A DNA stretch of 63,186 bases, filler included, from Psammoneis japonica (Eukaryota): the NCBI GenBank assembly GCA_008632985.1. It is 3 parts of 3 records of this genome, joined end to end, with 100 filler letters (N's around TTAATTAATTAA, not from the genome) between each part and the next. Parts side by side here need not be neighbours in the genome. Positions count along the whole stretch, not along the records: positions 1 to 23,108 come from QPGO01000434.1; positions 23,209 to 46,033 come from QPGO01000436.1; positions 46,134 to 63,186 come from QPGO01000444.1. One strand, given 5' to 3'. Below are positions 1-63,186 of the stretch, piece by piece (positions within the stretch are counted from its first letter, which is position 1; the number at the start of each line of letters is the position of its first letter). Made by a program: the position numbers and the translations under genes. Below the pieces are notes generated by a model that was given only the letters and a program-made list of their open reading frames with translations, made no database searches and was not told the DNA's origin.

Positions 1-780
1 GCACGAGCGAAGACACCGACAATGGTGCAAGTGCCGGAGAGAGATGCAAAGACAGCAATCCAACGATGTTGCAAGAGGGCACAAAAGAGAGAAAAGATCT
101 GTTTGAGTCAGCACCATGTCTTCAATGAAAAGAACAAAGCAAGACAACATTGGTGTGCACAAAAACTCACACAGAGAAGCACGGCACCAGCACCTGCAAA
201 ATGACCACATCTGCGGTGAAATGGAACAACACAAGGAGGCAAGAACATGCTTTTCTACAAACACAAAGCAACAACGAGCAAACGACCAATGTAAACTCAC
301 CAGTGGGGTCAAAACTTGGGGTGCCTGGATCGTCAACGGCGGGCAGGGAGACAGATGGAAGAGAGGCAATCTGGTTGTTCCACGAAGCAGGACGACAAAA
401 GCAGGCTGCAAATCGGCATGAGCAATGGTGGAAAGTTGGAGCTTGGGATCGAGTGACTGGTGCGGTCCATGCAAATCGTTGCAGAAGCTTGGAGAACGGA
501 GGCAGCGCCATGGTGGTGCGGCATGGACCGGGGCAGAAGCAGCGCACCATGGTGGAACGGGGGCGGAGCCAAAAACGGTGACGGCGACGGTGTGGACCCA
601 TGGACTTCGACATCCCCATCTTCGATTCCCACACATCAAGATGCGGGACAAGGAGGTTCAAGGTGAGTGCCATTGCGAACGAGAACGGGAAAAAGACGCG
701 TGATTCCACGAGAATCAGAACTCACCACATTTTGAGTCATTCTGACCCATTCCAGAGCCAGGGCTCACTCACATGGCACG
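1..780. mobile_element. Degenerate repeat/TE relic, TpA-depleted (runs off window start)
   Basis: Almost no TA dinucleotides and many overlapping Tyr-free spurious ORFs, the same signature as the recognisable TEs in this window. No family motif recognised. Confidence 0.4.
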
Positions 781-1334
781 ACCCAATGGCTCACAACACT
801 GTCAAGCAAGGTAGGGGTCGAGAGGCGGTGTCGTACCGGTCAAATCGGCCAAAAGCGCCATTGTCGGAGGGAGCGGTGGTTGTCGATCGGCCGCTCGGAA
901 AAATTATGAGCCATCAACCCGACCGCGCACCGTTCGGAGTCGCACAGAATTTCTCGGTACAAAATGTACACAAGTGTACGTCAGTATAAAAATCGTGTAG
1001 AAGGGGTGTAAGTAGAAACTTACTGTCTCTCCTTGGACTACGAGGATTCTGCCGTTAAACTATACCAGCATGTATAATTCTACGTGGTGGATTTGAATCA
1101 ATCCCACCAACGTTTTTAAATTTCGATCGTAGTAACGGCTTTAGGTGCTGTGATGAATATATATATAAGTTTGAATCAAATATCATATGTAGCGTTAATA
1201 ATTTTGAATGATTGCGCGACTGCCAGTCGGCACCAAAAACCGTCGCCAATAAGTAAACCTGCAGTACAAAAGTACTCTTTTGCAATACTTTGGTACTTCA
1301 GTCTTGCACATGAAAGCGCTCCCTAAGTAGTTAA

Positions 1335-1625
1335 CGGTCGAATTATATATATAAAATCCTCACAGCGGGAGACCCTATATACGCTCCCGTGTGCACTCAA
1401 CGCGCCTCGGTTACGACCTTCTCGTTGGGTTGCACAATGGCGAGAACGACCCACAGCTTGTCGTGTGGCCTTCTCGTCGGGCTGAGCAACCCGCCTGGTC
1501 GGTCTCCACCTTGTTGCTTGGACCCTTCTCGTTGGGTTCGGCGGGGCCGAACCCTCCTCGTCGGGCTCCATGAGTGCAAAGGGCGCGCACCTGCAGCACG
1601 GCAACCGTGTCTGCTCTAAGTAGAG
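1335..1625 (+). repeat. Short GC-rich repeat array (CCT(T/C)CTCGTYGGG x4 with hairpins), possibly non-autonomous Helitron-like
   Basis: Starts near TATATATATAAAAT; motif at ~1417, ~1469, ~1524, ~1553; perfect 9-bp stem GGGTTCGGC-GGG-GCCGAACCC; CTAAGTAG occurs on both flanks (1323, 1616). Confidence 0.35.
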
Positions 1626-1889
1626 CAGGACTGACGGAAAGCAAGACTGAGCCACCCGGCGCGGCCGGTGACCATGATGCTAAAACGAAAGTGAGAATTG
1701 AGAACAAGACGCCATCACAAGCGATTTGCTTGCTGATGCCACGTAGATGGTTTGACTTTTGCTGAAACAAAAATGAAAAGAGATGACGACGAATGCAATT
1801 CCAAAGCCAAACAATGCCGCCAAACACACATCGCTTGACACACGAGACATGAGGAGTGCAGTGCGGATGAAGACCTCCCCCTGTGAGAG

Positions 1890-2028
1890 GTGGAGGAACA
1901 ACAAGCGATTCTACCAGATCATGTTGATGCTCTTTTCCCAGATCATTCTAAGCAGCCACTGTGGAATCTCCCGCTCCATCCACACGTGTGGCCACCACCT
2001 GCGTTTGATTTGGAAAAGAAGGTGAGCC
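1890..2028 (+). pseudogene. 5' fragment of a third paralogue of the 6013/17645 gene family, truncated by repeat insertion
   Basis: QAILP...QPLWNLPLHPHVWPPPAFDLEKKVS matches PPPRFDLERKMS (6013 gene) and QAIVP...HVSPQHGFDFEKKVS (17645 gene); similarity stops abruptly at ~2028. Confidence 0.6.
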
Positions 2029-2063
2029 AGGACATGCTGCTTTTGTCGTTTGTCTTCAAGACT

Positions 2064-2293
2064 GGGGGAGACATCTTCGGAAGTGAGGAGACTGTCGAAA
2101 AAAGTTCTTGCACAGAATTTGTGCTAAAACAGTCTGTCAACCAGTGCAACTGGGGGTGTTTGGGACCTCTGGACAGACCCCACATGTTTTCTTGTGCACA
2201 CAAACAATTGTGCTGGGAAAAATGGGAAAACCCCCAAACATGCTGGCGACCAGACTGCCTTCGACGATCTCACTTCAAAAGACGCCCCCCCAA
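2064..2293 (+). repeat. Dispersed ~220-bp repeat, heavily mutated copy (partner at 42737-42944, minus strand)
   Basis: Co-linear alignment by eye with the reverse complement of 42737-42944. Differences are almost all TA->TG/CA, CG->TG/CA, a few AT->AC and short insertions. Confidence 0.85.
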
Positions 2294-2424
2294 GACAGGT
2301 TCAATGCAAGAAGCATCCTCGAAGTGTTCACTCGCACTGTAGTTTTCAAAATGGCGGCAGAGGTCGTGTTAGTCGGATCAGTCGCGCGAGTCGTGGATTG
2401 AGACTGGTGGCAGATCCGGAATGT

Positions 2425-5400
2425 ACGCTGAAACGTACGCATGTAGGCCCTACGTGCGCACCAGCACCCCACGATGGCCCCCGTGAAGATTTTCATCTGT
2501 TTTTTGTCCGTTCGTGCCCACAGGGGCACGAAAGGAGGCTACGTAGGACTGCACCAGCAAATCCTGTAGATGCACGTTTCCATGCCAACAAGATTCATGA
2601 ACCTCTCAAACGAAAAGAGACAATGGCGTCGTTCTGGATCAACGCCGTAGTTGCTGCGTCTGAAACCGCAGCGCACCGCTTTTCTGCTCGTAGACTTGTA
2701 CGCTGTCCTGGTACAAAGGTCATTGCATGCATAGAGTCTACGATGAGGTCACACTGAAGGAAGAATTCTCGAATTTGAATTCTCAGCAATCAACCGAGTT
2801 TGTTTACTTTCTATTTTTTTTATGCTGCCAACCAAGTCTTACAATCACACATCCCTGATTCTACCTGCGTGAGACGACACTGAGATTTCAGTCCATGCAT
2901 AAGTTCACTTGCACCAATGGATGAATCGGCGTTGTGCTCGGTGACGACGTCCGAATCAGATTGGGTGGAGCATTTCAATCCAACAGAGGACTTGAATTTT
3001 TGCGACGAGGATCTCCACTTGATTGAGGACAGCTTGATGGATGAGCATGATAGAACCGAGCAGTCAAAGGACCGTCCAAAATGGAAAGTGGACAATGATG
3101 GGAAAGATGTTAAGATTGCCTTTAGCCAAGCTCCCCAAAAGGTGTGGGAGACGGCCAAAGCCGAGATTACAGAGTGTCAAGGTTATTCAGAATGGTTCCA
3201 AGGACGCAAGCATGCATTGACTCCTCTGGTTCTGATGCTCAAGTTTCAGTTCACCTTAGATTGGACAAAGCGCGAGAGCAGAGGCAGTCGCATTGGGTGT
3301 GCCTTGAGAAGCATCTCGACACGGCATCTGGTGTCGAAGATTTGGTGTGTCAAAATGATGACGATGATGCGGCACCGGCTCAGAATGACAATGATGATGC
3401 CACTGCACAATCCAATCCAATGACTGTTGGTGAAGGAATGCTGCTGGCTCAGAGGACACGATGATGATGACATTGTAGATTGGGCTGAGTTGGAAAAACA
3501 CTTAGATTCAGACATGGAAGAGGAGGAGCGGATTTCTGTTATCGAGAGTCGCCGTTGGGAAGCAAAGGAGGCGTTGAAGAAAGCAAAGGAAATTCTTAGT
3601 GATGCAGTTGACTCCACCAAACGAAATGAGTGTGCGAGCCAAACTAATGTCGGAGTTGAAAGCTGGCGAGCACAAGGATCTCCTGAAGGCGTTCGTCAAA
3701 CAAATGGGGTGGAAGGTTTGTAAGACGCACAAGGCAAACCTGAAAAACGCAGTTACGTGGCTAGAGTGTACCCCCGCCTCTCGACCCTACATCGTGCTGA
3801 ACAAGGAGCAACTGAAGGTAAGCATGTGTAATTGCTGCCACTGACATTATTTTACTATGGATCTAACCGAGTCGCTCCGAACCATTATTTGCTGACAAAG
3901 GCAAAATACCGAGAATGTATTAACAGCACGATGCCGTCGAGTGTGACAAAAAACGATGACTTCATAGCGATTCTGAGCGGTGAAGTCTCCGCACCAGTTG
4001 CAAGAGATGGCGATAGTGAGCCAAAAACGCCACTGGAAGCAATGGTGAAAACACTTTCTTCCACCACTCAAAGGTGAGGCGGCGGAGCTCTGTAGATTGG
4101 GACATGAGATGGAAGAACAGTGCGGAAAAGATTTTCTTGGTGTTGCAAGCGGCGAAGGAGTGCGACTCGAAAACAGATCCGTATTTGTTGCAAACAATCT
4201 CTTCAGAGCCGGCCTGCTACAGAAGCAAAATCGCCCTTATCAAAAGGACAGTCCAGACTTCCTCTGCACTGGAACAATAGACGATAAGCGAATCGTAGCG
4301 GTTGTCGAGATGAAGGCGCGTTGCAAATCTACTACCGCCGCCAAGGAGCGTCAGCGCATTCCGAAGTTGGTGAATTTTCGTTGTATCATGTGATTCGCCT
4401 GAGTTACGCAAGTTCATGCTTAAACGTTCAGAGGCAGTTCAGGTGAGCTGATGCACGGAATAACTGTTTGACACTGTCGTTGTAACGGTAACTCACCTCA
4501 GTCTCCACGACTTCCTCGCTACAGTGCGCTCATCATGCAAGCACCCTTGGAGTCAACCACGTCATTCTTGCCACTGGAGACAGAGTAGGCCTTACAGCAA
4601 TGGTGGTTATTGAGTGCTCCGACGAGTTCCTTGAAAACTACGAAAAGTGCATCAACGACATGTACGAGTCGGCATTGAAGTGGGCGTACGAGGAGGGCGT
4701 CGACATTCCAACCGAAGAGCTCAAGGCTGCTGTGAAAACTGCACGAGTAAAGGTGGACTATGAGTCATTTATGAAATCAATTTACTTTTGGAAAGAACTG
4801 ACGAAGCCTCAGTACTTACCACTCCCACCGTGCGAGAGGATCATTCCCATGCAGGATGCGTACTGGAACAACACCAAGCATGGGTCGGACGTCAAAACCC
4901 AGTACTGCCAAAACCTATCAGCCCCAATTCCTGTCACATCTGCCGGAGCTAAGGCATACGACCGCATGCAAATGACAGCACTATCCGACATCCACAAAGG
5001 CGCTACCATGTTTATTACCAAGGAAGATCTCAACCAGTGCAATTCCCTTCACGACTTCAGAGACGATGCAAAGCACAAGATGAGCTTCAGAAAAGCACTC
5101 CTTCGATTGTCTAAGTTTTTCAAGAAGCTGAGCCAGCAAAATCTCCAAAGTGGAATTGGTTCTCCTTCGTCTTTTACAGGGATCGTTACACCATCACCAG
5201 CAACTCCAGTACAGCCGCCGAGGTGGATGCGCGGTGAAATTCAAAGGAACCAACCAATTTTGTAGCAAAAGGAACTGGAAAGTCTCCCAAGCGCTCTCAC
5301 CTAGAAGCTCTACTGAAACCAAAGGACAGTTCTGAAGAGGTCCCTTCCAAGCGATTCAAGAGTTGTCGGGTGTACCTGTGTTCAGAGCAAATGAAAACAA

Positions 5401-5897
5401 TGGAAGTAAGAAAGGGAGTGGAGCTTTGGCGCGATGTATCATGTGCGACTCCAAGACACATTGGTATTGCTCTGGCTGTCGTCAATGGTATTGTTGCGAT
5501 AGTCCCCGTCCGCAAAGCGCTGGAGTCCCATACTTTCAAGATTCGTCAACGTACCGTGATGGGAAAAACAGGGATCGACCAATCGCCGGCGTGTACAATG
5601 CTTTATGCACTGTCACCCATCCATTGTGAACCAGGGATAGTAATATGTATTTGTATTTAGTGAATATATCATCTTTTTGACCACCGGCGTAATTGTAGTA
5701 CTTTGGAATATCATTTGTTGACAAGACGAGCGTTGTGTTGATGCTTTATCAATGAGAGCCGGTGTTTGTTTTGCACGTACAACTCGGTATGAAACCTACA
5801 GGGGCGTCGTTCGTGCCCACAGGAGCACGAACTTTTGCGTTCGTGCCCACACGCGCACGAAACTATCACGCGGGATAGTAGGCCTACGTTTCGACGT
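2425..5897 (+). mobile_element. Putative DNA transposon carrying YqaJ-like nuclease and piggyBac-like C-terminus
   Basis: Imperfect inverted ends (ACGCTGAAACGTA at ~2425 / TACGTTTCGACGT at ~5885). Palindromic subterminal motif GTTCGTGCCCACAGG(G/A)GCACGAA near both ends (~2510; ~5809 and a variant at ~5839). Ends are approximate and no TSD was established. Confidence 0.5.
2917..5629 (+). pseudogene. Disrupted, intron-containing transposon protein: YqaJ/lambda-exonuclease-like PD-(D/E)xK domain + piggyBac-like segment + Cys-rich zinc-binding tail
   Basis: Motifs SEWFQGRKHALT, LGHEME, DSPDF...VEMKAR, Q|CAHH; then YWNNTKHGSDVKTQ (cf. piggyBac YN..MGGVD..DQ); tail CIMC..KTHWYCSGC...C. In-frame GT-AG introns 3818-3900 and 4443-4524; several frameshifts/stops. 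Confidence 0.6.
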
Positions 5898-6012
5898 GAC
5901 CAAAGGGTTTCTGCGGTCGCGACACGACGATGATCTGTACCGCTATCACAAGAACCGCAACTCTAACGTACCTTCTGCTATAAGGCCGTCGCTCAACGAA
6001 TACAAAAGCGTA

Positions 6013-7983
6013 ATGGCAAATCGATACCCTAACATGCATCCGCCCTATCTGCCCTGGTCTGACAGAGAGCACTGTCATGCCACAATGCCTCCGCCCTCGC
6101 CTTTCTTCCCACCATGGATGCACGGATATGCCGCACCGCCAGATCCATTTACTGTTCAAGAGGGACAGCCACCATGGAGACCGCCGCCGCATCCCCTTTT
6201 TTGCCCACCACCTCGATTTGATTTGGAGAGGAAAATGAGCTCTAAACATAGGCTCTACTTCTATCACAACCGGTTTATTTCGAAGCAATCACCGTTCTGC
6301 CGGTCTCTTCTCGCTCAACCAAATGCAACCGAGGACAGCTTGCGTACTCTATCGCGTCAACTTCTACAAGATGGAATGTTCAACGTTTCTTTAGATGGCT
6401 TGTGTGAGGTTCGCGATCCATTGGCTCTTCATGATTATGCTCAGTATTACCAGTACGACCCTGTTCTCTGCCGTGCTTTGAAAATCGCTTCGGACAAGGA
6501 GCTATTGAAAAAGGACAGCTCTGCTCCCTTTAAAAATTCGCCATCGACAGGTTCAACGGGGGAGCCAACGCCACACACCCCTTTGCCTCAAAACAATTCC
6601 ATGGATTCTCCGCTTCCGTTGCGGCCCAAGCTCGCCTCTCCCACAGCGCCACCTCCCAAGCCAATTCGTGACTCAGATTTCTTATACTTCTCTGGCCATT
6701 TGCGAGTATCAAAATGGTGCAGGCTTACTTCAAAATGCGTCGACCAAGGCATCTCTGAGGATGACATAAAAGAAATATTCCAGACGCTCTACAAAAACAA
6801 ACTTTTCAACGTCAATGCTACAGGCCATTGTAGGATTATCCCAAACTTGCTTCCCCGCCTTGAGAAATTTACTACTCGGTTGGAAGACTCTCCCATGAAG
6901 CGGGCTTTGCAGTCGCATTTAGATGCCGCATCAGGGCTGAAGTCTCAACATGCAGCTGCTAAACGGTCGCGAGAACCACAGGAAGAGAGCGAGAGTATTG
7001 CCAAGCGAAAAAAGCCTTCTTCTGAACAAGCACTGGTACAGAGCAAAGTTTATAAAGACAACGCATATACTGCTTGCGTCAGTGCCGAGGTGAATCCAGG
7101 ACAGCATTCGCCCATGGAAACACCAGAGAAGGCCACGAGTGCGGTTCGTACGGGGAGTTCAACGGATTGCCAGAGCAAGGCTCGGAATGTAGATTGTCAG
7201 AAGACTCGACAGCGGTGCGAGAAACACAAGCCTAGCTCTTCCCGAGAATCTTCTGGTTGCGTCCACGCCAGCAAGAATGCAGAAAGGAAATCAGCCCCAG
7301 TTTCACCTGTGGTGGAGATGGCTGCCATTCGAACGAGCACCAGTACGGCAGGGGATTCGGTCATCGAGACTAAAGCAAGCAATAAGCAACAGCGAAATGC
7401 AGCGGTCGACGAGTACGAGGTGGACGCTGCCAATGAGAAGGTGCAGCAGTGCGAAAATTCCCAACACGCTCCGCTGAACCACAGTGGCTTGCAGCACTCT
7501 TATCTACAGGGTGCTCGTCATTTCCACGATTTGCAGGACTCCGGTAGACCTCGTCGCCGAAAACGAGGACGCCGGACAAGAAAACGGAGAAAGGTGGGTT
7601 CTAACAACAAACTCGACTCAAGCACCGACGTGGCTGCCAAGGGCCAAACCAACACCGTCATGGAGACAGATGCACCATTTGCCACTCCACGTAAGCCATA
7701 TCCGGAACGTCACAATGTGGATGCTGCTGTCGAGACGGAAATGATGACGAAACAAAAGCGAGCCCCCAATGATAGCAATATCGACAAAGCTGACGAGGCG
7801 TCGACGAGGGACTCAGCCTGTCTGCATTTTGGAGATAATGGACTGAATTGTGAATCACAAGACAACAACATGCAGAGACTCATGAAGGTTGCCAGAAAGC
7901 TCAACCTGCAGATAGATTGGACATCGGATGACCAATCGGAAGCCGCTGATGAGAGCTTCGGTTGTCACACTGTTTATTTGTAA
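6013..7983 (+). CDS. Uncharacterised protein (Pro-rich N-terminus, duplicated ~75-aa domain, low-complexity linker with basic NLS-like patch, conserved C-terminal motif)
   Basis: Long open frame (ORF 5752-7983). ATG 6013 (MANRYPN) chosen because it matches MANRIPN in the paralogue at 17645, and the upstream ORF part overlaps a TE end. Normal TA/Tyr content. Confidence 0.75.
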   Translation: MANRYPNMHPPYLPWSDREHCHATMPPPSPFFPPWMHGYAAPPDPFTVQEGQPPWRPPPHPLFCPPPRFDLERKMSSKHRLYFYHNRFISKQSPFCRSLLAQPNATEDSLRTLSRQLLQDGMFNVSLDGLCEVRDPLALHDYAQYYQYDPVLCRALKIASDKELLKKDSSAPFKNSPSTGSTGEPTPHTPLPQNNSMDSPLPLRPKLASPTAPPPKPIRDSDFLYFSGHLRVSKWCRLTSKCVDQGISEDDIKEIFQTLYKNKLFNVNATGHCRIIPNLLPRLEKFTTRLEDSPMKRALQSHLDAASGLKSQHAAAKRSREPQEESESIAKRKKPSSEQALVQSKVYKDNAYTACVSAEVNPGQHSPMETPEKATSAVRTGSSTDCQSKARNVDCQKTRQRCEKHKPSSSRESSGCVHASKNAERKSAPVSPVVEMAAIRTSTSTAGDSVIETKASNKQQRNAAVDEYEVDAANEKVQQCENSQHAPLNHSGLQHSYLQGARHFHDLQDSGRPRRRKRGRRTRKRRKVGSNNKLDSSTDVAAKGQTNTVMETDAPFATPRKPYPERHNVDAAVETEMMTKQKRAPNDSNIDKADEASTRDSACLHFGDNGLNCESQDNNMQRLMKVARKLNLQIDWTSDDQSEAADESFGCHTVYL

Positions 7984-8336: not shown

Positions 8337-9608
8337 TCAAGCCTTGACGGGACGAACGTAAACGTCCACATCGATGGGAGCCCACACATTGGTGCGATTG
8401 CCGTCCTGTAATTCGATCCTGTATGCATTTCCTTCGTCCCACTGCTTGAGGACTTTGCCGCGCTGAAATTCCCCAACGTTGGCTTCCACAATGGTCCCAA
8501 CCGGGAAACGCAAAGGCGCATCGGCACGACAGGCCATGAACCCGTTGCGATAGAAGTCATGATCCAAGTGTTTGCCGATAAAGACAAAACGACTCTCGCG
8601 CTTCTCGTTTTTCTTCCACTTGGCTGTTTCATCAAAACCACCCGAAAAGAGCATACCAACTCCCTGGAAGACGAACTTTTGGTTCATGCCCTTAACGGCA
8701 ATGACACCCTTGTAGCGGTAGAGGTTGGCTCCGTCTTGCGTAATGAGGCGCTGGATCCAGCGCTCCAGCATCATCATGTTTACGTCGCCTTCGACTTTGA
8801 CTCCGACAGAAGAGACAGTCTCGTCGTGCTGGTGTTCTTGATCTTCGTCCAAGAACTCTGGGTCAAAGTCGAGGACGCGACTAAGCTCAAACGCCTGAAT
8901 GTTCAAGAGGTCCTTGGGGTTCACTTGACTGTGCTTGGTGCGTTGAATCGTGGCAGTGGGATTGAGCGCCTTGAGCTCCTTCTCAATCTCGGCAAGTTTC
9001 TTGTCTGTAGACAAGTCGATCTTGTTGAGGAGAATCTTGTCGGCAAAGGCGACCTGTTCCACTGACTCGTTTTCGACACCCTCCGGTTTCTTCTCTTGGA
9101 GGCGCTCCATAATGTGCTTGGCGTCGACTACAGTAATGACACTATCGAGCCTGTACTTGGATTTGACTTCGTCGTCGATGAAAAAGGTCTGGCACACAGG
9201 CGCAGGATCTGCTAGGCCCTGCGAAGTAAGAGCAAGTCATGAGAATCCTGTGCTCAGTTAGGCCGCTTCCAGAAAAAGATTTTCACGTACCGTTGTCTCA
9301 ATAATGACACCCTGAAAGGTCTCTACTCGAGTGTAGAGATTCTTGAGGGCCTTCACCAAATCCCCGCGAATGGTGCAGCAAATGCATCCGTTCATCACTT
9401 CAATGACTTCTTCGTCAACATTCTCGGACAAAACCTTCTCATCGACTCCCACTTCACCAAACTCATTCTCAATGACGGCAAACTTCATACCATGGCTGGT
9501 ATCCCTGAGGATATGGTTGAGTAGAGTGGTCTTGCCTGATCCAAGGAATCCAGTGAGGATAGTCACTGGAACGACTGGCGTCTTGGCTCGTTTCGAAACA
9601 GGCGTCAT
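8337..9608 (-). CDS. COG0523/CobW-family (ZNG1-like) G3E metallochaperone GTPase; 2 exons (9608-9291, 9218-8337)
   Basis: GFLGSGKTTLLN Walker A, NEFGE, GCICC metal motif, ETT|GLADP split by a 72-bp GT..AG intron (9290-9219), NKID, CobW_C-like RYKG...VFIG. Confidence 0.95.
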
Positions 9609-9897
9609 GGCGCTACTACAAAAGCCTCGAATTGCAACAACTTTTGGTTGTGAGAGCAGATTGTGAGGTGTCTTTTGCATTGGATCGTCTTTTTGGCGCC
9701 TTTTTGGATTTTTAGGCTGAAAAGGAAAAGCCTCATGAATATGAAACAATGGCCTTGAAAAGGCTTTTCGATGTCGATCACGCTCAAACAAAGGCCTCAG
9801 GCTTTTGCTCAAACCCCATTGTGCGCCCACTTTTTTTTCAATCAATCAATCGCACACAACATCAAAGTTCGTTCAGCTCACGTTGCCCGCAGGAACA
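9609..9897. promoter_or_regulatory. Probable bidirectional promoter between CobW-family and nitroreductase genes
   Basis: Only ~290 bp separates two divergent start codons. Confidence 0.55.
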
Positions 9898-13600: not shown

Positions 13601-13817
13601 GGCTGGCAGCCAAAAGAAGAGGCAATGGGCAAAGCAGCAGTCATTGCTGGAGAGCCCAAGTGTGCTCAATGGCAAGTTGGCGGGCAGCGGCAAGCCCATT
13701 TGAATGGTCAGCAGAAAAACAATTCAGGCAAGCCAGCAGTTGAAGAAGGTGATGGCTCGTGAGTGGCAGTGTCAATGGCGGCACACGGCATGTGTGTGGG
13801 AAGATGACGAGGGGCAG

Positions 13818-16735: not shown

Positions 16736-16787
16736 ATTCCATCCGAAGTCGAATCTGTTTCTGTGACTCCTCAAGCAAACTGGGGAG

Positions 16788-26370: not shown

Positions 26371-26372
26371 TA

Positions 26373-52378: not shown

Positions 52379-55300
52379 TGGCTCAACAGTCTCATTTTTT
52401 TCTCTTCTTTGCCGGTGGTGCTGGAGACGACATCTTGATCTTTTCATGTCAACGATGAGAGGAGTGTTGCTGCTTGACAGTGCAACCGTCGTTTGGGTCG
52501 TGTTGAGACAGCCAGCCACTCTGTTTTTCTCTGTGACATTGCACAAATCATTGTCAGCAAAATTGAAATTTGAAAATGTGTTTGTGTGTGACAACGAACA
52601 GCTCAACTTGCTTTTTGATGTGGCTGTCATTGCGCTTCAATGGAGACAATGTCCTGCATTTTGATGGCAAATGAAGAGCACAACATCCACTGCAAATGCC
52701 AGATAAAAAATCAAAATGCAGACACGTCACACCCATGAGAATCATCCAAATCTGGAAGACAATGTAATGTTTGCCAATTTCCCGCCATTTTTTGCCTGTT
52801 GTTCTTCCTTTCCCTTCTCATCCACAAGACAAGGACGACAAGCATGAGTCTTGATGAAGGCCCTGTCAATGTTGTCTGATTGACAATGGATGGAAACCCT
52901 CTTCTCTGTCCTGGGTGTGGCAAAAGTTTTTTGTGAATGGCCTGCCATTGGAGATGCTCGCCAATGTGTCACTCAGTTGCCCAAGAGTTGCAAACCCAAG
53001 ATCAAATCCCAGATCAAAGCGACATTCCTGCCACAATGGAGGGGCTGCCCAAAGAAAGCGGTGGTTCTTCCTCTTCGTCCTCTGATGATGATGAATCCCA
53101 TCCGAGGCGACATGCTCGCAGCAGATTCCCAAGATCTTCAACGAGTGATCTGAGCAGCAGCCCCTTGTTCCCCTCCCCGGATGATGCACCGCACAGAATG
53201 GACGACATGTCCTCTGTTTCATCAAACCACAGCATGCATGGAGTTGAGCTTTCAGCAATGAACGATTTGGATGTTGGCGGTGGTCAATCCTTTGCTGCAG
53301 TGTTGGACATGACAATGGAGGAGGAAGAGGACATTCACGATGAGGATCAACATTTGGGGATCAGGCATCACGCTCCTGCAGAAGAGGCCTTGGCTTCCAC
53401 TCCCTCTTTGACAAATCTTGACGGAGCTTGCGCAGAGTTGTGCAAGAAGCTCATGGACACATGTGGTGCTCCCCTGGAATTGTGCGATTGCATTGTTGAT
53501 TTCATTGAGAGGCACACTGGGAACAGCGACATTGAGCTTGGTGCAGTTCTGCCAAGGAGAAAAGAGTTGATGCGCACCTCAACTGAGCACTTCCCTCTTC
53601 CACCCAGCGAGTCCATTCCTGTCACTCTAGAAACCAAAAATTTCAAAACCGGTTTGCCAAAACGAGTGTCAGTGCCAAGATGGGATTTCACAAAGGTTTG
53701 GGAACAGTTTTTGCTCAATCCTCACCTGTGGCGCAGCAGAGAGAATGTGGCTGATCCAGACAATCCTTTTTTGGAAGCACAAAGTGAGGGGACCGGGTGA
53801 CAAGTGCCTTTTGGCGGGTGAGTGGCACAGGCACAGTCGCGAAGAATGGACAACTGACCCGGAGAAACAATTTCTCGAGTGCAATGTCATTTGCCTCGAC
53901 AAGACTGGCAGGACACAAGGGATGGGATCACATTGTGGAGAACCAGTGATCATGACCTCTGCGCATGTTGCCTTCAACAAATGGTCTGACAAGAGTGTCT
54001 GGAAACCAATTGGTTGTCTCCCTGATTTGGAAAAGATGTCATCATCTGCGGCAAGGAATCTCTCAAACAATTGCAAGGCGGAGAAGGGACGCTCGTCAAG
54101 AGACTGCCACACTTGCTTGCGCGTTGTTTTGGAGCTACTTTTGGAAGTCATGAGAAAAGGAGGCATGAAAACATGCGTGCGATGAGGGGATGAGATGCGA
54201 CACCTCCGCGCAATCCCGCTGATTGTTCTGATCACAGGAGATGCAAAAAGCGGCAACTGCGGAGGTCACAACTGTCGCCAATGTTGCTGTCGTTTTTGCC
54301 CCATTAGCTTCAACAAACTGGACGACCCATGGATTGAGTGCGAGTTCATCCGAGGACTGGATCTCCAACAAGTGCAAACTGAGGCCAACAACGACAACAG
54401 ATCAGACCAAGAAAGGAAGCACTGGCTGGGCATCTTGCATCACCTCAAGCAACACAACGCACCTGCCAACTGTCTTTTTGAGGCAGACTTTGGTGCACAA
54501 CCACATGGCATTGCCCTTGCAACAGCAAGCAACATGATGCATCTCTTTGAAAACGGCACCTTGAAAAGGGCAATCAATTCATTTGTGGACAGCATGACAC
54601 CTGTGGTCGCAAGTGAGGTGGACAGCACAGTGGAAAGGATTTTCAGCAATCACCGGTCAACTTGCAAAGCATCCTTTTTGTGAACAAACTTCAAAGGAGG
54701 AGCAACGTCACTTGCCTTCCTCAACTCTCACCACTGGGCTGGAATGGCTTTTGTTTTCCACCTTCTCCTGTCAACCAGCGAGGGACGAAATGCATGTGAG
54801 TCATGCTTCCTTGACGAGGACGCAGACGAACCCATTGTTCCAGAGAATCGCAAGACACCCAAAGCAAACTTTGAGAGTTGCTGCCAACATGGTGAGTGCT
54901 TGGACTCTGACGATGAAAGGTCGGAGGAGTCCGAAGAGGGTGGCTGGGACGAAAATGAGGATGAGAAAGAGGAGAGTGAGGCAGAGGATGGTGACGACAA
55001 CCAAAAAAAGAAAAAATGCAAGGGAAAAAGACTCAGCTGCAGCGCCCGGCAATTCATCAATTGCTTGAGGATCTTCTTTCTTCCATGCATGGTGCAGGCT
55101 GGGCGATCCACCCATCACAAGCACAACTCCCAGTTCATCCATTCAGAAAACAAACACGAAAATCCGTCTCCTCATTGACTGGATGTTGCAATTCATCGCG
55201 CGAACAGAAGGGTGCAGGTGGAAGCTTCAAAAGCTTCATGAAACACTCCATCTCTTGGTGTTTCTTTGTCATTGCCAACACGCAATGAACTTTGATGCAG

Positions 55301-55711
55301 GCTTGGGGGAACGCCTCTTGAAAGACTTTTTCAAGCTGCCATTGTCTGCCACACAACAATGCAACCTTGATGGTTTTCTGAAGCAGGTCGTGTCGCGTGT
55401 GGAGGAGGACAGTGCATTTTGCCAACTGGGAAAAAGGAAACATCAAGACTCACCTGCAGCTGAGGGATTGGTGCTGTGACGTTTGAGTGGAACAGCTTGC
55501 GCGCTCGTTGCCAAGTTCATCCTGTGTCGCTGAACTTCATGTCAGAAAAGTGGGAGGATTGTGTTGGTGAAGACAATGAAAACACACGTCTGACTTGCAA
55601 GACAGAGTTTTGCCATGCAAGTGGGAGGGATGCGCACCGTGCGCACCCCAGTTGCAAAAGCGAAGGCCCACGGCATGACTGTGCCTGTGTGACCTTTGGC
55701 ACACGAAAGGG

Positions 55712-56157
55712 TGCAGCATGCATGCAGACAAAAGGTCATTTTGTCACGCCCTTTGTGACATTTAAAGGCTGCAACACGTCGGCGTGATGCATTGGCTCTT
55801 GTTGGCAGCTGTGTGTTGCACTCCTCCCCATGTGTCACGCGTCCATGCGGCTCTTTGCTGACGTGTGCTGACACTGCACGGTTTTGGCAGAACAGTGTGG
55901 GTGCGTGCGAAGGAACACACAGAACTGCACAGAGTTTTGCGCGTTCGACAGTGATCAACGTTGCTGCAGACAACTCCCACTCAGGTTTCGAACCCCTGGC
56001 CTCCTGCCCAATGGTTGCGAGATGAACCACTCCGCCATGAATTCACAACGCAGCATGCATGCAGACAAAAGGTTATTTTGTCACGCCCTTTGTGACATTT
56101 AAAGGCTGCAACACGTCGCCGTGATACGTTGACTCTCATTGGCAGCTGCACATTGCA
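55712..56157 (-). mobile_element. TRIM (miniature LTR retrotransposon, 446 bp)
   Basis: 109-bp direct repeats 55712-55820 and 56049-56157, outer ends TG...CA, 4-bp TSD AGGG. Removing it restores host frame TRKG|DQQFP. PPT GGGGAGGAG on the minus strand abuts the 3' LTR. Confidence 0.9.
55975..56046 (-). ncRNA. tRNA-like / Pol III A-box + B-box module inside the TRIM
   Basis: Minus strand reads TGGCGGAGTGG ... GGTTCGAAACC at tRNA-like spacing; cloverleaf imperfect, anticodon not assignable. Confidence 0.55.
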
Positions 56158-56537
56158 AGGGCGATCAACAGTTTCCCTCCCGTTTGCTGTGTTTCTTCGA
56201 ACAGGAAGACACAGGATCAATTTTTGCAGCGGCCCATCCAGCTGCTTGTCAAGCTGACCAGAGAACTGTGGGGCAACGGCATCAGCACACAAACTTGGTC
56301 AGTCGCTGGCAGCTTGATCACAAACAAAACAACTGGCTTTCAATGCCTGAGAAGACTCAGCACTCGCCTGAGTTGCAGGTTGTCCCCATCAAAGCAATTG
56401 GGGACAATGTTTTGGTTCACGAAGAATGTCCAGGAGCAGCAGAAGCGCAAGAAAAGGCCCCATTTGTTTGGGCTGCACAGGACAGAAGGAAGTGTTGGTC
56501 AGATTTGTTTCTAAAATGGGATGCGCGCATCAATCTG

Positions 56538-59500
56538 TCATTCACTCACAGTGATTTCCCAACTCTTTCTTGCAAACATGATGAGTTTGATCCTTTCAGA
56601 ATTGGCAAAGTCATTGTGGTGCACGTGAAGCAGTGCGGCGTGAGCACCTTCCATTGCTTTTGTTCTGATGTCTTCTTCTGAAACTCCAAGATGAGCTTCT
56701 TCCTGATCAGAAGGCTTTCCCAGCCACCGTTCTCGTTGTTCTTGGGTTGTAAGGTTGCTTGCAAAGAACACACTCGCGCGGCTCTTTGCAGCATCATTGT
56801 CCATTGTGCATGTGTCGAACACAGCCGATGATTTCTTCCATTGTTTGACAACCTGGAAGAAGGTTGTGAGAGCAAAGGGAGTCACTGTGTCCCCCCCTTC
56901 TCCATTTTTGGAGAGCAAGGCCCAAAGATCAATTAGATTCTGGAAAAATTGAGTCGTCCCAAAACGAGAATTGTGCCACTCTCCATCTGGCATCCAGCAG
57001 CAGCCCAACATGATTTGGTCGAACCCATGATCATCAAAATCAACAATTTTCTCAAACTGCTGCTTGACTCTCTTGACGAAATCTCTTGCTTTCACATTGC
57101 AATTTAAGTGCAGATCAGGATGGCCATCTTAGAGAGAAACTGTTGGAACGACGTTTGTGGTTGTTTTGTTGGTTTCCTCAAATGCCATTGTGTGTGCCTT
57201 GTCTCGCCTGTGTTGGTCGGACGACCCTGAGGCCACCCCCTTCTCAGAGCACAATTCTTGAGAAGATGGATGCCTTGCATTGAGCAGACGGGTCATCCCC
57301 AACCACAGCACATTGTGTGTTTCCCCATTGGTTTCGTCACTTGCGAAACAATCTCCCAAGTCACCATGGTCCTCTTCACCCTCGGAGCATTGTGCAACTT
57401 GGTTGTGCTCATCATCAATGGGCTCTTTGCTTTTGTCCTCTTCACCCATGCAAGCAGTTGGAAGTTTGCTTGTGTTCTCGTCAATTGACCCCTCCTCGCA
57501 ATCGCCAATTTTGTTCATTGCAAATGACAACAAATCACCGGCGGCCTTCTTCCTGTTAGAATGAGAATTCAATGTGACAATGTCAGTGAAATCAGACAAA
57601 AAACAAATGTGGTTGCCATGAAAAAATGACCTCTCTTTGCCGTTCCAGTTCGGCTCGAACTTCATCAATTGACACGAATGGGGCTGGCTCCCATCCCCCC
57701 ATCAGAGAACAAGAGCAACAGATGCTGTCCGCAACAAAAGACATCGCAGATTCCCATCTTTTATGAGCTGCACTCAGGTCACACAGCAAAGACGCTGGAC
57801 CATTCTTTCCACAGTCTTCCAAATCAAAATCACCCACTGTCCGTTCCAAGAGTGAATCGCGCTCCTCCACCGGGACCTTCATTTCCTCCATTTGCTTTGC
57901 TGCTCCCAACTTGGCTGCCGGATGGACAAGATTGCGAAGGTCAGGGTGAGCATGGATCCCCGTGCCACACAGCATCAACATCTGTGCAGAGTTCATGCAT
58001 CTGAACTCTCCATGGTCAGCGCCTGTGTGATCCCATGTTTGGACCACGGTTTTAAACACATCCTCGAACGCCTTGTGGTCAAACGTTGGCTTGCCAACAT
58101 TGTCCTTGATCCAGTCCATGACAACAACCAGTCCGCCAACAAGCAAGTCCATCAAACCATTGAGTTTCATCCCGCACTCTGCCACATGAACCTCCTCGAA
58201 ATCGAGTCCCGGGCTCTGCATGCGTCGGTTGTTGCGATCCCCCGCAATGCTGCCGAGTGGCCTTGCAGCTTCTCTGAAGCAATGAAGGACACGATCTCCA
58301 GCCATGAAAGGGCACTTCGCAGCATCTGTGTTGCACAACAAGCAGTGAAAATGGGAGAATCCGGTTTGACACCCAGCCACAATGGCGCAACAAAAGCAAT
58401 CGCACACACCAACCTTGTCGATGTTGTCGATGATTGCCGAACAACCGCACGAGAAATTAAAGTCCTTCACGATGGCAAACGTAAGACGTTTCCTTGGCAT
58501 GACAATGACGGGATGCTCAACTGTGTTGGACGGAAGATTTGGCTTGTCAATTTCCTCTTCCACCCACACAGAAGTGAGGGTCAAGGAAAAAATCTTTGAT
58601 GTTTCTGTGGGTTGGCTTGCCCGACGGAGGATGACAAGGGCCATGGCATCTCATCATTTCTGCAGCATGTGACAGATCAAGTTTTGCGAAATGACCATGC
58701 ACACGCAATCGGAACTTGGCATGCCCATGTGCCGAGCTGACATGGTTTCCAGCATTGCCTTTGGATGCAGTGATGACCTTCAAGACCAAGAGCGACCAAC
58801 AGCATCTCGCAGTGATGAGCAAAGAGCACCAGTCTTGGTGCACCCATCCATGTCACAATCTTCTTTGTCAATGTGAAGCTCAGTGTTTGAATCAACGGAT
58901 TTTTTGCCGGACGATGAGATGCACTTCAGACGCGTTCCAGATGTGGGTGGAAATCCGTGTGACATTGGGCCCGTAGACTTCTACGTGCGAGCTCCCAGCA
59001 AAATCATGCGGCAATTAAAATGTCAATGATCGCCAACAGAAAATGAGGCAATTTTGCGAACGCACAAACTCGCCCATGATTGAAGTGCATCATTTTTTAC
59101 TTGGCCAGTTGCATTCTTCAGACATTGAAGAATGCAACTGGCGCATTGTTGTTTCTGCAAACTTGTCACACAAAACGTCTGGGGCTTCGCAAAACAGTGA
59201 GTCTGGACAATTTTTTTTAAACATCACACATGGAAAGCTACGTGCGAAACATGCGACGGATGACAAAAATCATTTGTGTCACACGTCAGTGCTGCGAGCT
59301 CCCACCTGGGGCTGGAACGGTCTTCACTTGAATTTCCACGCCTTCTCTTCTAAAATGCTTGGCTCCAACCATCTCATGGAGCTCAGCTGCGAAAAGACCA
59401 TCACGGTGCGGGTCATGGAAGGAACGCATTTCTTTCAAAGCAACAAGATTGATTTTGTCCTCGCAGAGTTGCGCGGCGTCCAAGATTGAGGCTGTCATCA

Positions 59501-61445
59501 GCTGCACATCCTTTGGAAGCTTCTCCCACTTGTCCCTGCCAAAGATGGCACCAGGCTTGTGAGTGGGTCCCACTTCAGCTAACTCACCGTCTGCGACTTC
59601 GCAATTCTGGCCACAACAACCAAAACAGATCCGACAAGCAACTTGCATTCTGGTCCATCCCTTTTTTCGTTTGGCTTGCCATGTTCCAACACTGCACAGA
59701 GTGTCAACGACACACTGAGCTGCAATCCAAAAAAGTGTTTCTGATGCATCTTGTCCGTGTGTCGCAAATGAGTGACCACGTTGGAAAAATGAGAGGTTGG
59801 CTGGGTCGGGCAAGCAATTGCAACCATCAATTCTTGCGTCGGATTGTTGGGAGCCAAGCCGTTTTCAAATCCATGCACAAACTTGCGGAGTTGATTCACC
59901 AAGCAGAAATCGGAGATGCTGTGGAACAACTGGTGCTTGACACAGCTCCCCTCAAAGGAACCGGCAATGGGGGTTTCCTCAAAGACGACAAGGTGAGAAT
60001 GTTGTGACTTCACCTCACCCGGAATTGCAAACGGAGATGGTTCAGGAAACACTTTCACAAGCTCTTCTTTTGTGAAATTGTCTGGCGGAGGAGGAGGTGA
60101 CTGATGAGTCATGCCGAGGGTCGGCCACTTTGTTCGGGAATGTTCAAATTGTTCCTCGAGAGTCGGCACATCTTGGAGAATCAGCGATTTGTTCTGAGAA
60201 ACATCAGAAGGTTCATCATCTTTGGGGTTTTTGAGACTGGGGCTTGAGGAGCAAAGGGAGGCAGCTGAAGAGGTGGCAAGAAGAACAGAAGAATTGGAGA
60301 CAAGAAGAGGAGGACAAACAACCAATCAAACAATGTGATGGATTCACACCATTTGGATTTTTTTGTTTCCGAGCATTTTTCGTAACAGATGGAACTGCAT
60401 TGCAGATTTCTTTCTTCTTGCACTGAGTGGCAAAGTCATGAAGCCTGGCTTTCCACACAGCCTCAAAACGATCCCTTGTGGCCTTGCTTTTGCCGGAATC
60501 GTCAGCGGCAGAAACCACACGATCAATTTTCACACATCTTAAAAGAGTCTCATCGACATGTGTTGCGCGCATTTGTTCTCGCTCGACATCAAGCATCGCT
60601 GGTCGCATGGGCTTTGCCCAAGAATTTTTGTGTTGGTGGAACAATGACTTCACGAATTCAGGGAAGGACATGGGGCGTTCGTCTTTGGTCGTCTCACAGA
60701 GACCAAGAGCCAGGAAATTCTCCAAAAAGTTGATGCAAGTCGATGTCTCATCACATTCGCCGAACAGGGAGCAAAGCCAATGATCGTCATCACCATTCCT
60801 TTCAGGTGCATGCGGTGGAATCTTGTCACAAAGAATCAAAAAACCAATGTGAAGGCATTGCGCGCAATGCAAAACCTTCCCTTCAAAACTTCTCAGCTCA
60901 GTGTGCTTGACAAGTGGCTCTGCCTTTGGGTTGCACAATCCGGGATCATGGAGAAGCTTGCACAACATGGAAATCTTTGCCATCATGTTGGTTGTGATGT
61001 CTGTTGATTTTGCCTTGTCGCCGACGACTTTCACATCCTCCACTTTGGGAGCACGGCGATGCTCCAACGCATGAGGATGTTTGGCGCCTTGACTGGAATG
61101 ACTCCATCCTTTTGTGGAAAGAAAGTGCAGCAAGCTCTTGCACCCAAGTTCCTTTGCAACAATGCGGTTCACAGCCATTGGCTCTACAAAAAAATGAGGT
61201 CTGCCCTTTGACTTTTGCCACATGTGGGCAAGCGCGATCCAATTTGGAGAGGGATCACAAGTGGAATCGCAGTGGAACTGAACCTTGGATTTCACCGTCT
61301 CGATTGTCGCTTTGACGCGGCTCCGCTCGTTGCTGTCAATCACTCCAAAACCATTGGCAAAGAGAGATTCAAATGCGGCCTCCTCGAGGTGGGAACCGTT
61401 GTTGTCTTGCGACAGAGAGGCAACCGATGGGTCATGTGGCGCCAT
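56538..61445 (-). pseudogene. Long decayed minus-strand cargo gene(s), convergent with transposase B
   Basis: Chain of Tyr-free ORFs (60216-61667, 59579-60325, 59286-59813, 58780-58965, 57592-58644, 57129-57668, 56538-57095) in shifting frames; contains an HIDKED...G.T motif. Confidence 0.55.
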
Positions 61446-61699
61446 GGTTGCTGTTCCAACACCAAAAAATCTGGTTTCTGCAGAAATGTGCCAGAGTGGT
61501 GCATGGGAGAAGTCACATGTGCGCCTGGTGGGATTTGGAGTTTTAAACACAAAAACCCACCAGACGTGCGTGCAACTTCTCAAGGGGAAATCCTGCGTGA
61601 GATCACACCGGGAAAGGGCAATGCGAAGTGCAGAATTGATGAAAGAAAACACTGTGCATGACAGCATCAGGAGAAAGGGTGTGTGTGCTGGAAAACAAC

Positions 61700-63186
61700 A
61701 TGGATTTCTGCATGTGCGTCAAGGTGCGTGAAGAACACATGGGTGCCTTCAAGTGACGCATGCGAACAATCACAAAGAAACATTCAGAAATGGAGATGGC
61801 ACAGAGAGAAGTCAGAAACATGGATCCAAAACAAAGTGACACACAACAGAAAAAAAAAACAACAACAAGAGACGATGAAGGTGACGGCAACGGGATTGAT
61901 GAAAAAGAGGGATTCAGATGGAAAGACGCCGGAGATGGTGAAAACAGGTGGTGCAAAAATGAAGAAGGAAGAGAAAAACAGGACGGGCAAAATGAAGAAA
62001 GAGAAAAAGAAGCCAACAACACGACGTCAAGAGGGGAGCAGCGATGCGATTTGGCATTTTGAGGGGCCTCTTCCTCTGGATGATGTTCACCCAAATGCAA
62101 GACATGCAGTGTGGCTTTTTTGGGACGGTGACGAGGAAACATCCAACGCAGCAGCGGCACATTTGGAGTTCTTGCAAGAGAGCGGACAAGACATGTGGAA
62201 TGAAGAGGACGATGTGGACGACCAGGCAAATTGGAGCACAGTTGTTGATTGAACAACCAGTGCACACTTCACATGATGAAAATTGCATTGCATGCAATTG
62301 CAATGTTTGGCTTCCAGTTAAAGATCGTTGGTTGTTGTGAAAAAGGCAGAGCACAAAAATTAAAAAACATCTGTGTTCAAACATGAAGAACAGCAGGAGA
62401 TCAATGGTCAACTAAATGACAAAAACTGTCATGTGCAGACAAGCAGGTTTTATGATGCAGCAGTGCATTTTTGTCATGCGTGCAGATGTTACGATGTTGT
62501 GCACTCTGATGATCCAAAAGCACATGAAGTGTGCATGTCAGGAAATGCCCCTTCTGCTGACTGTTCCAGTTGTCTTTCACATCTGTCAATTGTGCCCTTG
62601 TGCCCGCATTGTTGCCCTCCATCTTGGTGTGTGTGAGCAATGCATGCAGCCCGAGTGCGTGTTCCTTGGCAACAAAGGATGCGCCGCCATTGCTCAAACT
62701 TGGTTTGCTGCAATCACGGCAGAGCTCATGAGCCGGGAGCACCTTTCCAAATTTTGCAGGTTGATGTGTGACCACGTGGGGTGTCACTGTGTGTGGCACA
62801 ATGTTGCAATTCTGCGCAAGCACCCGTGGGATTGTCCTGTGTGAGAGTGTGGTGGTGTGCCAACCTCCTCGGGCACTTTGGGACGTCAGGCAGTTGCGCC
62901 AATGACAGAGAAACCAAAAGGCATCGGAGGGGATGCTCTGTTGTGTCTATGTCTGGGGGAGCGGCGCCGTCATGGTGTCGCATCTCTTTGCATTTCTTTC
63001 CCTGATGTCAGTGTGTTTTCTACGTTAAATTCTGTGTGATTCAGCAGTTTTCAAGTCAGTTGTTTCAGCGCAAATTTCATGTGCAATTCTGCGCGTTTGG
63101 CCAGAATTTCGAGTCGACGACCGTGCAAGGTTTGTCCTCTTGTTCTTCTCACCAACACACTTCCTTTGAGTTTTTCTTTCCAATGT
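61700..63186. mobile_element. Continuation of TpA-depleted TE domain to window end
   Basis: Same composition; acidic/Cys-rich plus-strand remnants; no family motif recognised. Confidence 0.4.

Follow-up and report, generated by a model that had tools for sequence, protein, structure and literature searches.

Nearly every TpA dinucleotide is missing from nine domains of a 63,186-bp stretch of Psammoneis japonica DNA (GenBank assembly GCA_008632985.1), and these domains are rich in TpG and CpA. By “the window” we mean this whole stretch at its full length. The explanation we favor, to which we give a probability of about three in four, is that a localized, TpA-specific process turned nearly every TpA in relics of mobile or otherwise non-host DNA into TpG or CpA. 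The footprint is that of TpA hypermutation carried to saturation in a new lineage, and this kind of hypermutation has been described once before, in 2026. To judge from the relatives of its genes, the host is most likely a diatom rather than a fungus.

It should be kept in mind that the window is composite. Two artificial linkers of the form N44-TTAATTAATTAA-N44, hence four 44-N runs, lie at 23109-23208 and 46034-46133, so three separate contigs (1-23108, 23209-46033, and 46134-63186) have been joined in the window, and sequences that meet at a linker should not be read as genomic neighbors. Dinucleotide frequencies are given as rho, the observed over the expected count (o/e), with 200 mononucleotide shuffles read in 1-kb windows as the null. 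Depleted and normal domains were separated by a two-state hidden Markov model (HMM) on TA density.

Over the whole window, o/e is 0.31 for TA, 0.70 for CG, 1.43 for TG, and 1.38 for CA. The nine depleted domains total 35,990 of the 63,186 bp (57%) and, when pooled, hold 131 TA against some 2,204 expected (o/e 0.06), with TG at 1.62, CA at 1.55, and CG at 0.51. None of AA (1.28), TT (1.30), and AT (0.81) is depleted in them, so the loss concerns TpA, and not A or T. The remaining 27.2 kb, which we call normal, has TA at 0.59, CG at 0.98, TG at 1.19, and CA at 1.15, and the guanine-plus-cytosine (GC) content is 50.4% in depleted versus 47.1% in normal DNA. Among 63 non-overlapping 1-kb windows, 26 have a rho(TA) of at most 0.10; the minimum for any 1-kb window across the 200 shuffles was 0.64. 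The depleted domains, with TA counts given against expectation and other values as o/e, are the following.

1-811: TA 2 of 40, CG 0.70, TG 1.67, CA 1.57; no Pfam match
1413-2339: TA 7 of 51; holds the mutated copy, at 2062-2290 (minus relative to its partner), of a miniature inverted-repeat transposable element (MITE)
10962-13838: near CpG-free relic; TA 8 of 185 (0.04), CG 20 of 171 (0.12), TG 1.70, CA 1.85
14339-17338, plus strand: truncated Ty1/copia-type element; TA 21 of 164 (0.13)
19978-21618: TA 2 of 102 (0.02), CG 0.25; haploid, single-copy depth
23163-26350, plus strand: reverse transcriptase (RT) element of the type without long terminal repeats (non-LTR), at the start of the second contig; TA o/e 0.13, CG 0.86
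33243-38865: domain with old internal duplications; TA 12 of 394 (0.03), CG 0.19, TG 1.79, CA 1.77
43166-44048: zero TA (0 of 49), CG 0.45, TG 1.57, CA 1.88
46147-63186: third contig, depleted across its 17 kb; TA 63 of 1096 (0.06), CG 0.61

The observation of TpA depletion is confirmed as real. A first-pass annotation of this DNA had described domains rich in transposable elements (TEs) that are poor in TA and rich in TG and CA, set in normal host DNA, and the contrast between 0.06 and about 0.6 elsewhere bears it out; its estimate of some eight TA in 11040-13810 agrees with an exact count of 8. The effect is also confined to domains, as had been claimed, and is not a genome-wide bias. Edges are sharp: 19978-21618 has 2 TA in 1,641 bp, and the 400 bp on either side have 14 (left) and 16 (right). 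Within normal domains, TA o/e is 0.55 in the open reading frame (ORF) part and 0.64 in the non-ORF part (12.5 kb), so unconstrained DNA beside host genes is not depleted.

Intermediate values occur at 2001-3500 (TpA o/e 0.32-0.41, TG+CA 1.32-1.42), beside a depleted domain whose HMM boundary falls at 2339/2340. Mutation may have been partial here, in DNA that the model assigns mostly to the normal state.

Direction, Strands, and Timing of the Change

The polarity probe used here is the Tyr codon (TAY, where Y is a pyrimidine) at positions that are ancestrally Tyr in protein families. Three unrelated families in the window offer 37 such positions, which now read Cys (15), His (9), Phe (5), Arg (2), Tyr (2), and four others; both of the retained Tyr codons stand in a CTAC context. 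On the third contig, ORF P0126 has no Tyr in 500 amino acids (aa), whereas its relative P0248 has 21, and these align in the window to nine Cys, six His, three Phe, and one each of Arg, Ile, and Ser, with none kept; Tyr to Cys and Tyr to His are the two commonest mismatches between the window and P0248. In the copia element, 12 consensus-Tyr columns read five Cys, two His, two Trp, one Arg, one Glu, and one Tyr, compared with Tyr in 323 of 371 cells, and Cys or His in 8 of 371 (2.2%), among 31 relatives. The proposal in the first-pass annotation of A:T to G:C transitions at TpA, polarized from TA to TG/CA, can therefore be upheld, given that TGY or CAY has taken the place of 24 of the 37 ancestral Tyr codons and that the control relatives show so few.

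Similarly, the window RT contains 0.4% Tyr, 3.8% Cys, and 4.6% His, against 2.7%, 1.4%, and 2.7% in its relatives (75 loci with a TA o/e of at least 0.41). Its core Tyr has been replaced by Cys/His, and the relatives carry Tyr at 14% of its Cys positions. Those 75 loci belong to a set of 80 related metagenome RT loci; the window copy stands at 0.13. Because relatives have normal Tyr and normal TA, a lack of TA is not inherent to these families, and it was TA that gave way to TG/CA.

Paired copies allow strand and timing to be judged. Two further features are needed here.

42737-42945, plus strand: unmutated MITE copy in normal DNA, 9 TA kept
13811-14490 (blocks 13811-13960 and 14362-14490), plus strand: 5′ LTR-like direct repeat of the copia derivative

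When 42739-42946 is compared with the reverse complement of 2062-2290, the MITE pair shows 26 mismatches, 7 of them between TA and TG/CA and 8 between CG and TG/CA. The copy lying in normal DNA keeps 9 TA, that in the depleted domain 1, and the TA changes gave TG 3 times and CA 4 times. Copy pairs with TA in one member and TG or CA in the other had been described before, and for this MITE-like pair (7 such sites) the description holds. Coding DNA also has both outcomes, with Tyr to Cys (A>G in the sense strand) 15 times and Tyr to His (T>C in the sense strand) 9 times, and TG and CA are similarly enriched in depleted DNA (1.62 and 1.55). With both outcomes present, and non-coding sites hit as well as coding ones, the process works at the DNA level and on both strands, in line with what the first-pass annotation had proposed.

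The blocks of the 5′ LTR-like repeat are 93% and 91% identical to 16782-16930 and 16939-17067, respectively, and of the 20 mismatches in all, 16 fall at sites derived from TA or CG. Four are TG-versus-CA doublets, which are expected when one palindromic site is resolved independently in two copies. Since the two repeats of a single insertion differ at such sites, the change came after integration. Across 11 pairs that include depleted DNA, 28 of 67 double differences are doublets of CA against TG, versus 0 of 15 in a host paralogue pair, and such doublets are the commonest double difference among the duplicates in 33243-38865 (75-81% identical, plus one 51-nt block at 86%).

Sequencing reads were consulted by placing k-mer contigs from a public sequencing run, X1, on the window and counting depth at an identity of at least 85%; X1 contains 0.66 of the sampled words from 9001-19000. 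Over 10752-11464, a 712-nt contig matches the window with 0 base differences and 1 gap, and contigs cover 19498-23100 with 0 differences, depth over these two intervals being 30-33. Within the latter, an 8,983-nt contig that takes in 19978-21618 spans 20066-23100 with 0 differences at a depth of 32.7. No TpA-type differences were found in the X1 contigs over single-copy depleted stretches. Whether reads would show TA at the TA-free sites had been raised as a check on the first-pass annotation; they carry the TA-free sequence, so an artefact of assembly, polishing, or base-calling is unlikely.

The same depths bear on targeting. Summed X1 depth over 10962-13838 is 59-103, against about 63 for single-copy DNA, and this domain and 19978-21618 are both single-copy at the identity used, although they could have been repeats when mutated. 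Most depleted DNA, in addition, has no recognizable TE protein, and the earlier description of the process as repeat-targeted is unsupported. We infer that targeting is by chromatin state or foreignness and not by sequence duplication, because single-copy domains are hit and because the MITE copy in a depleted domain is mutated while that in normal DNA is not (n = 1 pair).

X1 depth alternates between about 63 and about 32 over 9001-23100, with allelic differences clustered at 10632-10718 and haploid depth over 19498-23100; the organism looks diploid and heterozygous. Run X2 gave no contigs over depleted domains and a very high depth over the desaturase gene, a transcriptome-like profile in which missing cover proves nothing, and run X3 covers only the copia element.

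Five of the 80 metagenome RT-family contigs (L016, L052, L065, L027, and L014) are themselves TpA-poor (0.11-0.33), Tyr-poor, and Cys/His-rich, so the process is not peculiar to this genome. L016 and L014 return to normal TA density in their last 300-450 bp.

Surviving TpA, Mechanism, and Alternatives

The 131 TpA that survive in depleted domains are a biased set. By flanks (R, purine), 72 are YTAR, 56 mixed, and 3 RTAY, compared with 180, 591, and 328 in normal DNA (chi-square 121, p = 6e-27). We express this as a survival ratio, that is, the share TA/(TA+TG+CA) for each NTAN class in depleted relative to normal DNA.

TTAA: 0.59
CTAA/TTAG: 0.26
CTAC/GTAG: 0.10
GTAA/TTAC: 0.08
CTAG: 0.06
ATAA/TTAT: 0.04
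ATAT, GTAC, ATAC/GTAT, and ATAG/CTAT: 0.005-0.009

TTAA survivors are scattered across the five largest depleted domains. The five TA-poor metagenome RT loci have YTAR, mixed, and RTAY sites in the proportion 47/68/8, against 2605/7427/4037 in the other 75. The ratio of RCAR+YTGY to RTGR+YCAY is 1.41 in depleted and 1.25 in normal DNA, a mild bias only. A single-strand deaminase motif (TAY or RTA) was considered, but the 24 Tyr-codon events show no flank association and the idea was dropped.

Under the reading that we favor, the TA-free blocks would be relics of mobile or otherwise non-host DNA. The data show a process that is specific for TpA, works on integrated double-stranded DNA, stops at domain edges, and spares neighboring genes and intergenic DNA; it erases RTAY nearly wholly and sites with one R/Y flank largely, leaving YTAR and, above all, TTAA to survive. 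The footprint would be long-term and saturated, left by the same kind of process as in Bigelowiella natans, presumably the enzymatic conversion of a base at TpA.

Proteins would be inactivated in this way (RT core Tyr to Cys/His) while long open frames remain. By the genetic code, TA to TG/CA never makes an in-frame stop, and it removes TAA and TAG stops together with all Tyr codons. With TGA as the only stop left, long ORFs turn up in more than one frame and on either strand. Of the 39 ORFs of at least 200 aa, 25 lie wholly inside depleted domains, often overlapping one another on both strands. The mutated RT, although its core Tyr is gone, remains a frame of 954 codons with a single stop, because the change creates none.

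Several points weigh against this reading. The footprint is historical, in that only the end state is present and no mutation was seen happening, and a defense function is interpretation only. Only three protein families and one MITE were identified in depleted DNA. At the strictest threshold, the RT has Cys or His in 3 of 6 consensus-Tyr columns, with two Phe and one Tyr. The strand that changed is not predicted by the flank, Cys following a pyrimidine 10 times and a purine 5 times, and His 6 and 3 times. X1 derives from one sample, which may be that of the assembly; it speaks against a polishing error but is no independent confirmation. As for the copia family, 1,010 of 5,627 X1 contig pieces are at least 99% identical to the TA-poor copy, and at 16720-16721, where the window has TG, CA is found in 11 of 11 contigs, the family majority there not being TA. 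This high-copy family may be TA-poor in this genome, with TA-poor masters that kept amplifying, which weakens the picture of each copy being hit after insertion; mutation and amplification were probably interleaved in it.

TpG and CpA can also arise from CpG, and a second, separable process has presumably acted on the depleted domains, turning CpG into TG/CA to varying degrees via decay of 5-methylcytosine (5mC). CG o/e is 0.12-0.86 in every depleted domain versus 0.91-1.43 in every normal one, which is consistent with cytosine methylation of the former; the P. tricornutum genome is described as methylated (PMC6604790). Decay of 5mC is alike in its TG/CA products and is present here as a second layer, but it cannot remove TpA. 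On its own it would give a CpG deficit with TpA unaffected, whereas TpA is the more strongly depleted dinucleotide, and CpG decay accounts for only part of the TG/CA excess. Nor does TpA loss need CpG loss, given that metagenome locus L016 combines a TA of 0.11 with a CG of about 1.0 and the RT domain of the window has a CG of 0.86.

Which base is converted is a further question, and because TpA is palindromic, adenine deamination and thymine oxidation are indistinguishable from sequence alone. Our first choice, held tentatively, is that adenine may be deaminated to inosine by an ADAT2/TadA-like deaminase. The flank-independent choice of strand would fit recognition of a duplex site better than a single-strand motif, the sample being small.

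In second place, and rather unlikely, is modification of the thymine of TpA to 5-hydroxymethyl- or 5-formyl-uracil by a dioxygenase of the TET/JBP type, with mispairing to G and T>C as the result. Several of the observations above suit it: the palindrome hides T>C versus A>G and the two outcomes are about equal, the missing link between flank and strand and the symmetric tetranucleotide dependence fit an enzyme that reads a duplex site, and CpG, the other palindromic pyrimidine-purine step, also decays via its pyrimidine in depleted domains. In dinoflagellates and kinetoplastids, modified thymine is found preferentially before A. However, L016 loses TpA without CpG loss, so a shared pyrimidine pathway is not required, and an adenine deaminase is the only published proposal that we found, itself put forward as a proposal.

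RNA-level A-to-I editing of TE transcripts by an ADAR/ADAT-like enzyme, fixed by reverse transcription, we consider very improbable, even though two of the identified elements are retroelements, and ADAR and tRNA A34 deaminases usually act where a U lies 5′ of the edited A (10.64898/2026.01.13.699255, Discussion). Such editing should appear as A>G on the transcribed strand and in retroelements only. Here, Tyr to His (9 of 24) would require antisense editing, the MITE, which moves as DNA, is changed likewise, and the LTR-like repeats of one insertion differ, that is, they changed after integration; in B. natans, moreover, mutations are reported to arise in integrated single-copy DNA.

There is equally little to be said for the absence of any targeted process, whereby the elements would be intrinsically TA-poor or a genome-wide TA to TG/CA bias would be visible only where selection is lacking. 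TpA is mildly low everywhere (0.59 in normal DNA), and the copia family, with its many copies, may as a whole be TA-poor in this genome; yet conserved Tyr became Cys/His in three families, the RT core included, Tyr and TA are at normal levels in relatives elsewhere, the changes extend to non-coding sites of the MITE and the LTR-like repeats, and neither the sharp domain edges nor the non-ORF DNA beside host genes agrees with a general bias.

Least likely of all is an artefact of sequencing, base-calling, or polishing on modified DNA, since, although the depleted domains are the likeliest to carry DNA modifications, the accurate X1 contigs reproduce two of the depleted stretches without base differences, five unrelated metagenome contigs of the RT family show equal depletion and flank bias, and a public protein, P0244 (0.8% Tyr, 4.1% Cys, 4.7% His), has the Tyr-poor, Cys/His-rich pattern independently.

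Known Systems and Significance

The one system described with this signature is that of the rhizarian B. natans, whose integrated viral DNA undergoes A>G/T>C hypermutation at TpA only, as reported in a 2026 preprint (10.64898/2026.01.13.699255); the remark in the first-pass annotation that no such system was known has thus been overtaken. According to the preprint, 230 of 231 mutations in giant-virus and virophage regions of mutation-accumulation lines were A>G or T>C, all at TpA, and the rate, reached in only some lines, was about 6e-7 per site per generation, or some 1,000-fold above background. It also reports 124 genomic clusters, each an unbroken run of at least three 1-kb windows in which rho(TA) is ≤ 0.43 and rho(CA+TG) is ≥ 1.52, and an enrichment of reverse transcriptase and DDE endonuclease among low-TpA coding sequences. 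The candidate enzyme put forward there is an ADAT2-like adenine deaminase.

Both thresholds are passed by 27 of our 63 1-kb windows, in runs of 3, 6, and 13, so that clusters in the sense of the preprint are present. The likeness extends to the changes themselves, which in our polarized comparisons appear to be almost only A>G/T>C and on TpA, giving TpG/CpA; to their confinement to non-host regions (copia, RT, and MITE relics in depleted DNA, with a TA o/e of 0.55-0.64 in the normal neighbors); and to the involvement of single-copy DNA. The differences are that de novo mutation was measured in B. natans, a rhizarian, whereas here only the end state is available, in a probable diatom and on transposon relics, and that the B. 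natans targets are, as reported, mainly giant-virus and virophage insertions with partial depletion (giant-virus rho 0.45), whereas here depletion is near saturation (rho 0.00-0.13). Flank dependence and accompanying CpG loss are seen here and are not mentioned in the main sections of the preprint.

To our knowledge, repeat-induced point mutation (RIP) is the only well-understood process that removes one dinucleotide from selected DNA, such processes being rare. Fungal RIP is alike in its dinucleotide-specific transitions on both strands of integrated DNA, in saturation, in the contrast with genes, and in the inactivation of mobile elements. However, the RIP change is C to T, mostly at CpA, so that TpA and stops are created, whereas here TpA is destroyed, CA and TG are gained, GC is higher, and no stops arise. 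RIP also needs duplicated sequence and a sexual cycle, whereas two of the affected domains are now at single-copy depth, although they may have been repeats at the time of mutation. The first-pass annotation had argued that neither RIP nor CpG decay alone can explain the pattern, and with TpA lost to an o/e of 0.06 we concur; its interpretation overall is partly supported. In animals, APOBEC3 and ADAR similarly riddle viruses and retroelements with context-dependent transitions, but APOBEC3 acts on single-stranded cDNA and ADAR on double-stranded RNA, and the resulting G>A or A>G changes are strand-asymmetric, whereas the DNA transposon and the LTR-like repeats here are symmetric.

A literature search that covered few subscription journals found no other paper with the TpA signature, and none for diatoms. 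For P. tricornutum, mutation accumulation gave a GC to AT bias, with no TpA or transposon hotspot reported in the portions of that article consulted (PMC6604790). The diatom case, saturation on transposons, the flank rule, and the separable CpG loss appear new.

A broader proposal, which we find possible but would not yet rely on, is that diatoms have a dedicated base-conversion system that recognizes TpA as a duplex step (RTAY > mixed > YTAR, with TTAA spared), is directed at transposons and other non-host DNA whatever their copy number, removes TpA to saturation, and is homologous to that of Bigelowiella. If this were true, TpA editing would be an old genome-defense pathway, widespread in the stramenopile-alveolate-rhizarian (SAR) groups at the least, and a functional mirror image of RIP, killing proteins by removal of Tyr codons, plus TA-rich signals, without stops.

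The saturated footprint on the transposons of this probable diatom, together with the five unrelated environmental contigs, suggests that the process is widespread among marine protists and affects transposons as well as viruses. Erasure of RTAY with sparing of TTAA makes a concrete fingerprint, against which both candidate enzymes and the de novo mutations of Bigelowiella can be checked. Genetic manipulation is possible in some diatoms, so a direct search for the enzyme could be made there. For annotators, there is a practical side: TA-free DNA yields long spurious ORFs on both strands, which mislead gene prediction, while protein-domain searches largely miss the mutated elements and dinucleotide-based repeat or RIP indices would misread them.

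Contents of the Depleted Domains and Neighboring Genes

When 133 stop-to-stop ORFs in the TA-poor zones were searched against Pfam, a single match was better than E = 0.001 (a weak RVT_1); three further matches, at E 0.006-0.01, are at chance level. The TE labels of the first-pass annotation fared unevenly: copia stands by virtue of RVT_2 relatives, the non-LTR RT by RVT_1, and the MITE by its 34-nt terminal inverted repeats (42737-42770 and 42912-42945, 88% complementary), whereas “CRE-like,” “TRIM,” and “Plavaka-like” were not confirmed. No terminal repeats delimiting 10962-13838, 19978-21618, or 43166-44048 were found.

The copia derivative has a pol fragment at 15457-16834 and its 3′ repeat at 16782-17067. 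Within it, ORF 15686-16930 has 153 relatives, many with PF07727 (RVT_2, copia-type RT). Whereas unique DNA has an X1 depth of about 63, summed depth over 13700-17460 reaches 2e4 to 1.26e5, and it is this region that accounts for the 5,627 contig pieces; one X1 contig joins 13863 to 16898 and looks like a solo-repeat form. Between the blocks of the 5′ LTR-like repeat, 13839-14338 includes about 400 bp with a TA o/e of 0.40 and short tandem repeats, which split this repeat and are absent from the 3′ one; this may be a later insertion that escaped most mutation. In the RT element, the protein match, an RVT_1 reverse transcriptase, lies at 23397-25625, with relatives P0001-P0005.

On the third contig, the minus strand of 57772-61490 carries the relic of a gene of about 1,100 aa that belongs to a small family without Pfam domains. 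The family has 38 matches among 1.84 billion representatives, with lengths up to 1,135 aa, bar one weak match of 5,745 aa. ORF 60219-61718 (minus) is 60% identical to P0248 by phmmer, with 224 of 393 aligned positions identical, and P0249 matches three successive segments of the relic. In 16 scanned relatives, the part that matches is free of Pfam domains, though P0250 carries unrelated domains of the SdrD_B type N-terminally. An AlphaFold model of P0248 (predicted local distance difference test 73.4, predicted template modeling score 0.73) had no match in the PDB by Foldseek (best E 0.47) or VIA-align (best Z 3.8). DUF2828 was considered as an identity, on a weak Atlas lead only (score 0.88, recognition 1391), and the family was left unnamed.

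The host genes recognized by Pfam, all with ordinary TpA, are as follows.

8340-10695: CobW/G3E GTPase (minus strand) and nitroreductase (plus strand)
19051-19836, minus strand: fatty acid (FA) desaturase
27376-27915, plus strand: Got1/Sft2
41561-42196, minus strand: RDD protein
44589-45353, plus strand: BTB protein

A fungal framing of the host is wrong, as the closest named relatives of host genes are diatom proteins. For the CobW exon, these are from Nitzschia sp. Nitz4 (75%), Conticribra weissflogii (74%), a Bacillariaceae metagenome-assembled genome, and Pseudo-nitzschia, the top unnamed relatives reaching 81% identity. Relatives of the transposon proteins in the window include one Nitzschia inconspicua protein, and those of the RT protein include one gene identifier with the prefix “Sro,” which we take to be diatom.

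Two further long host ORFs, at 5722-7980 and 17543-18541, have no Pfam domains and normal TpA. They are paralogues, 6164-6467 and 17778-18072 being 76% identical.

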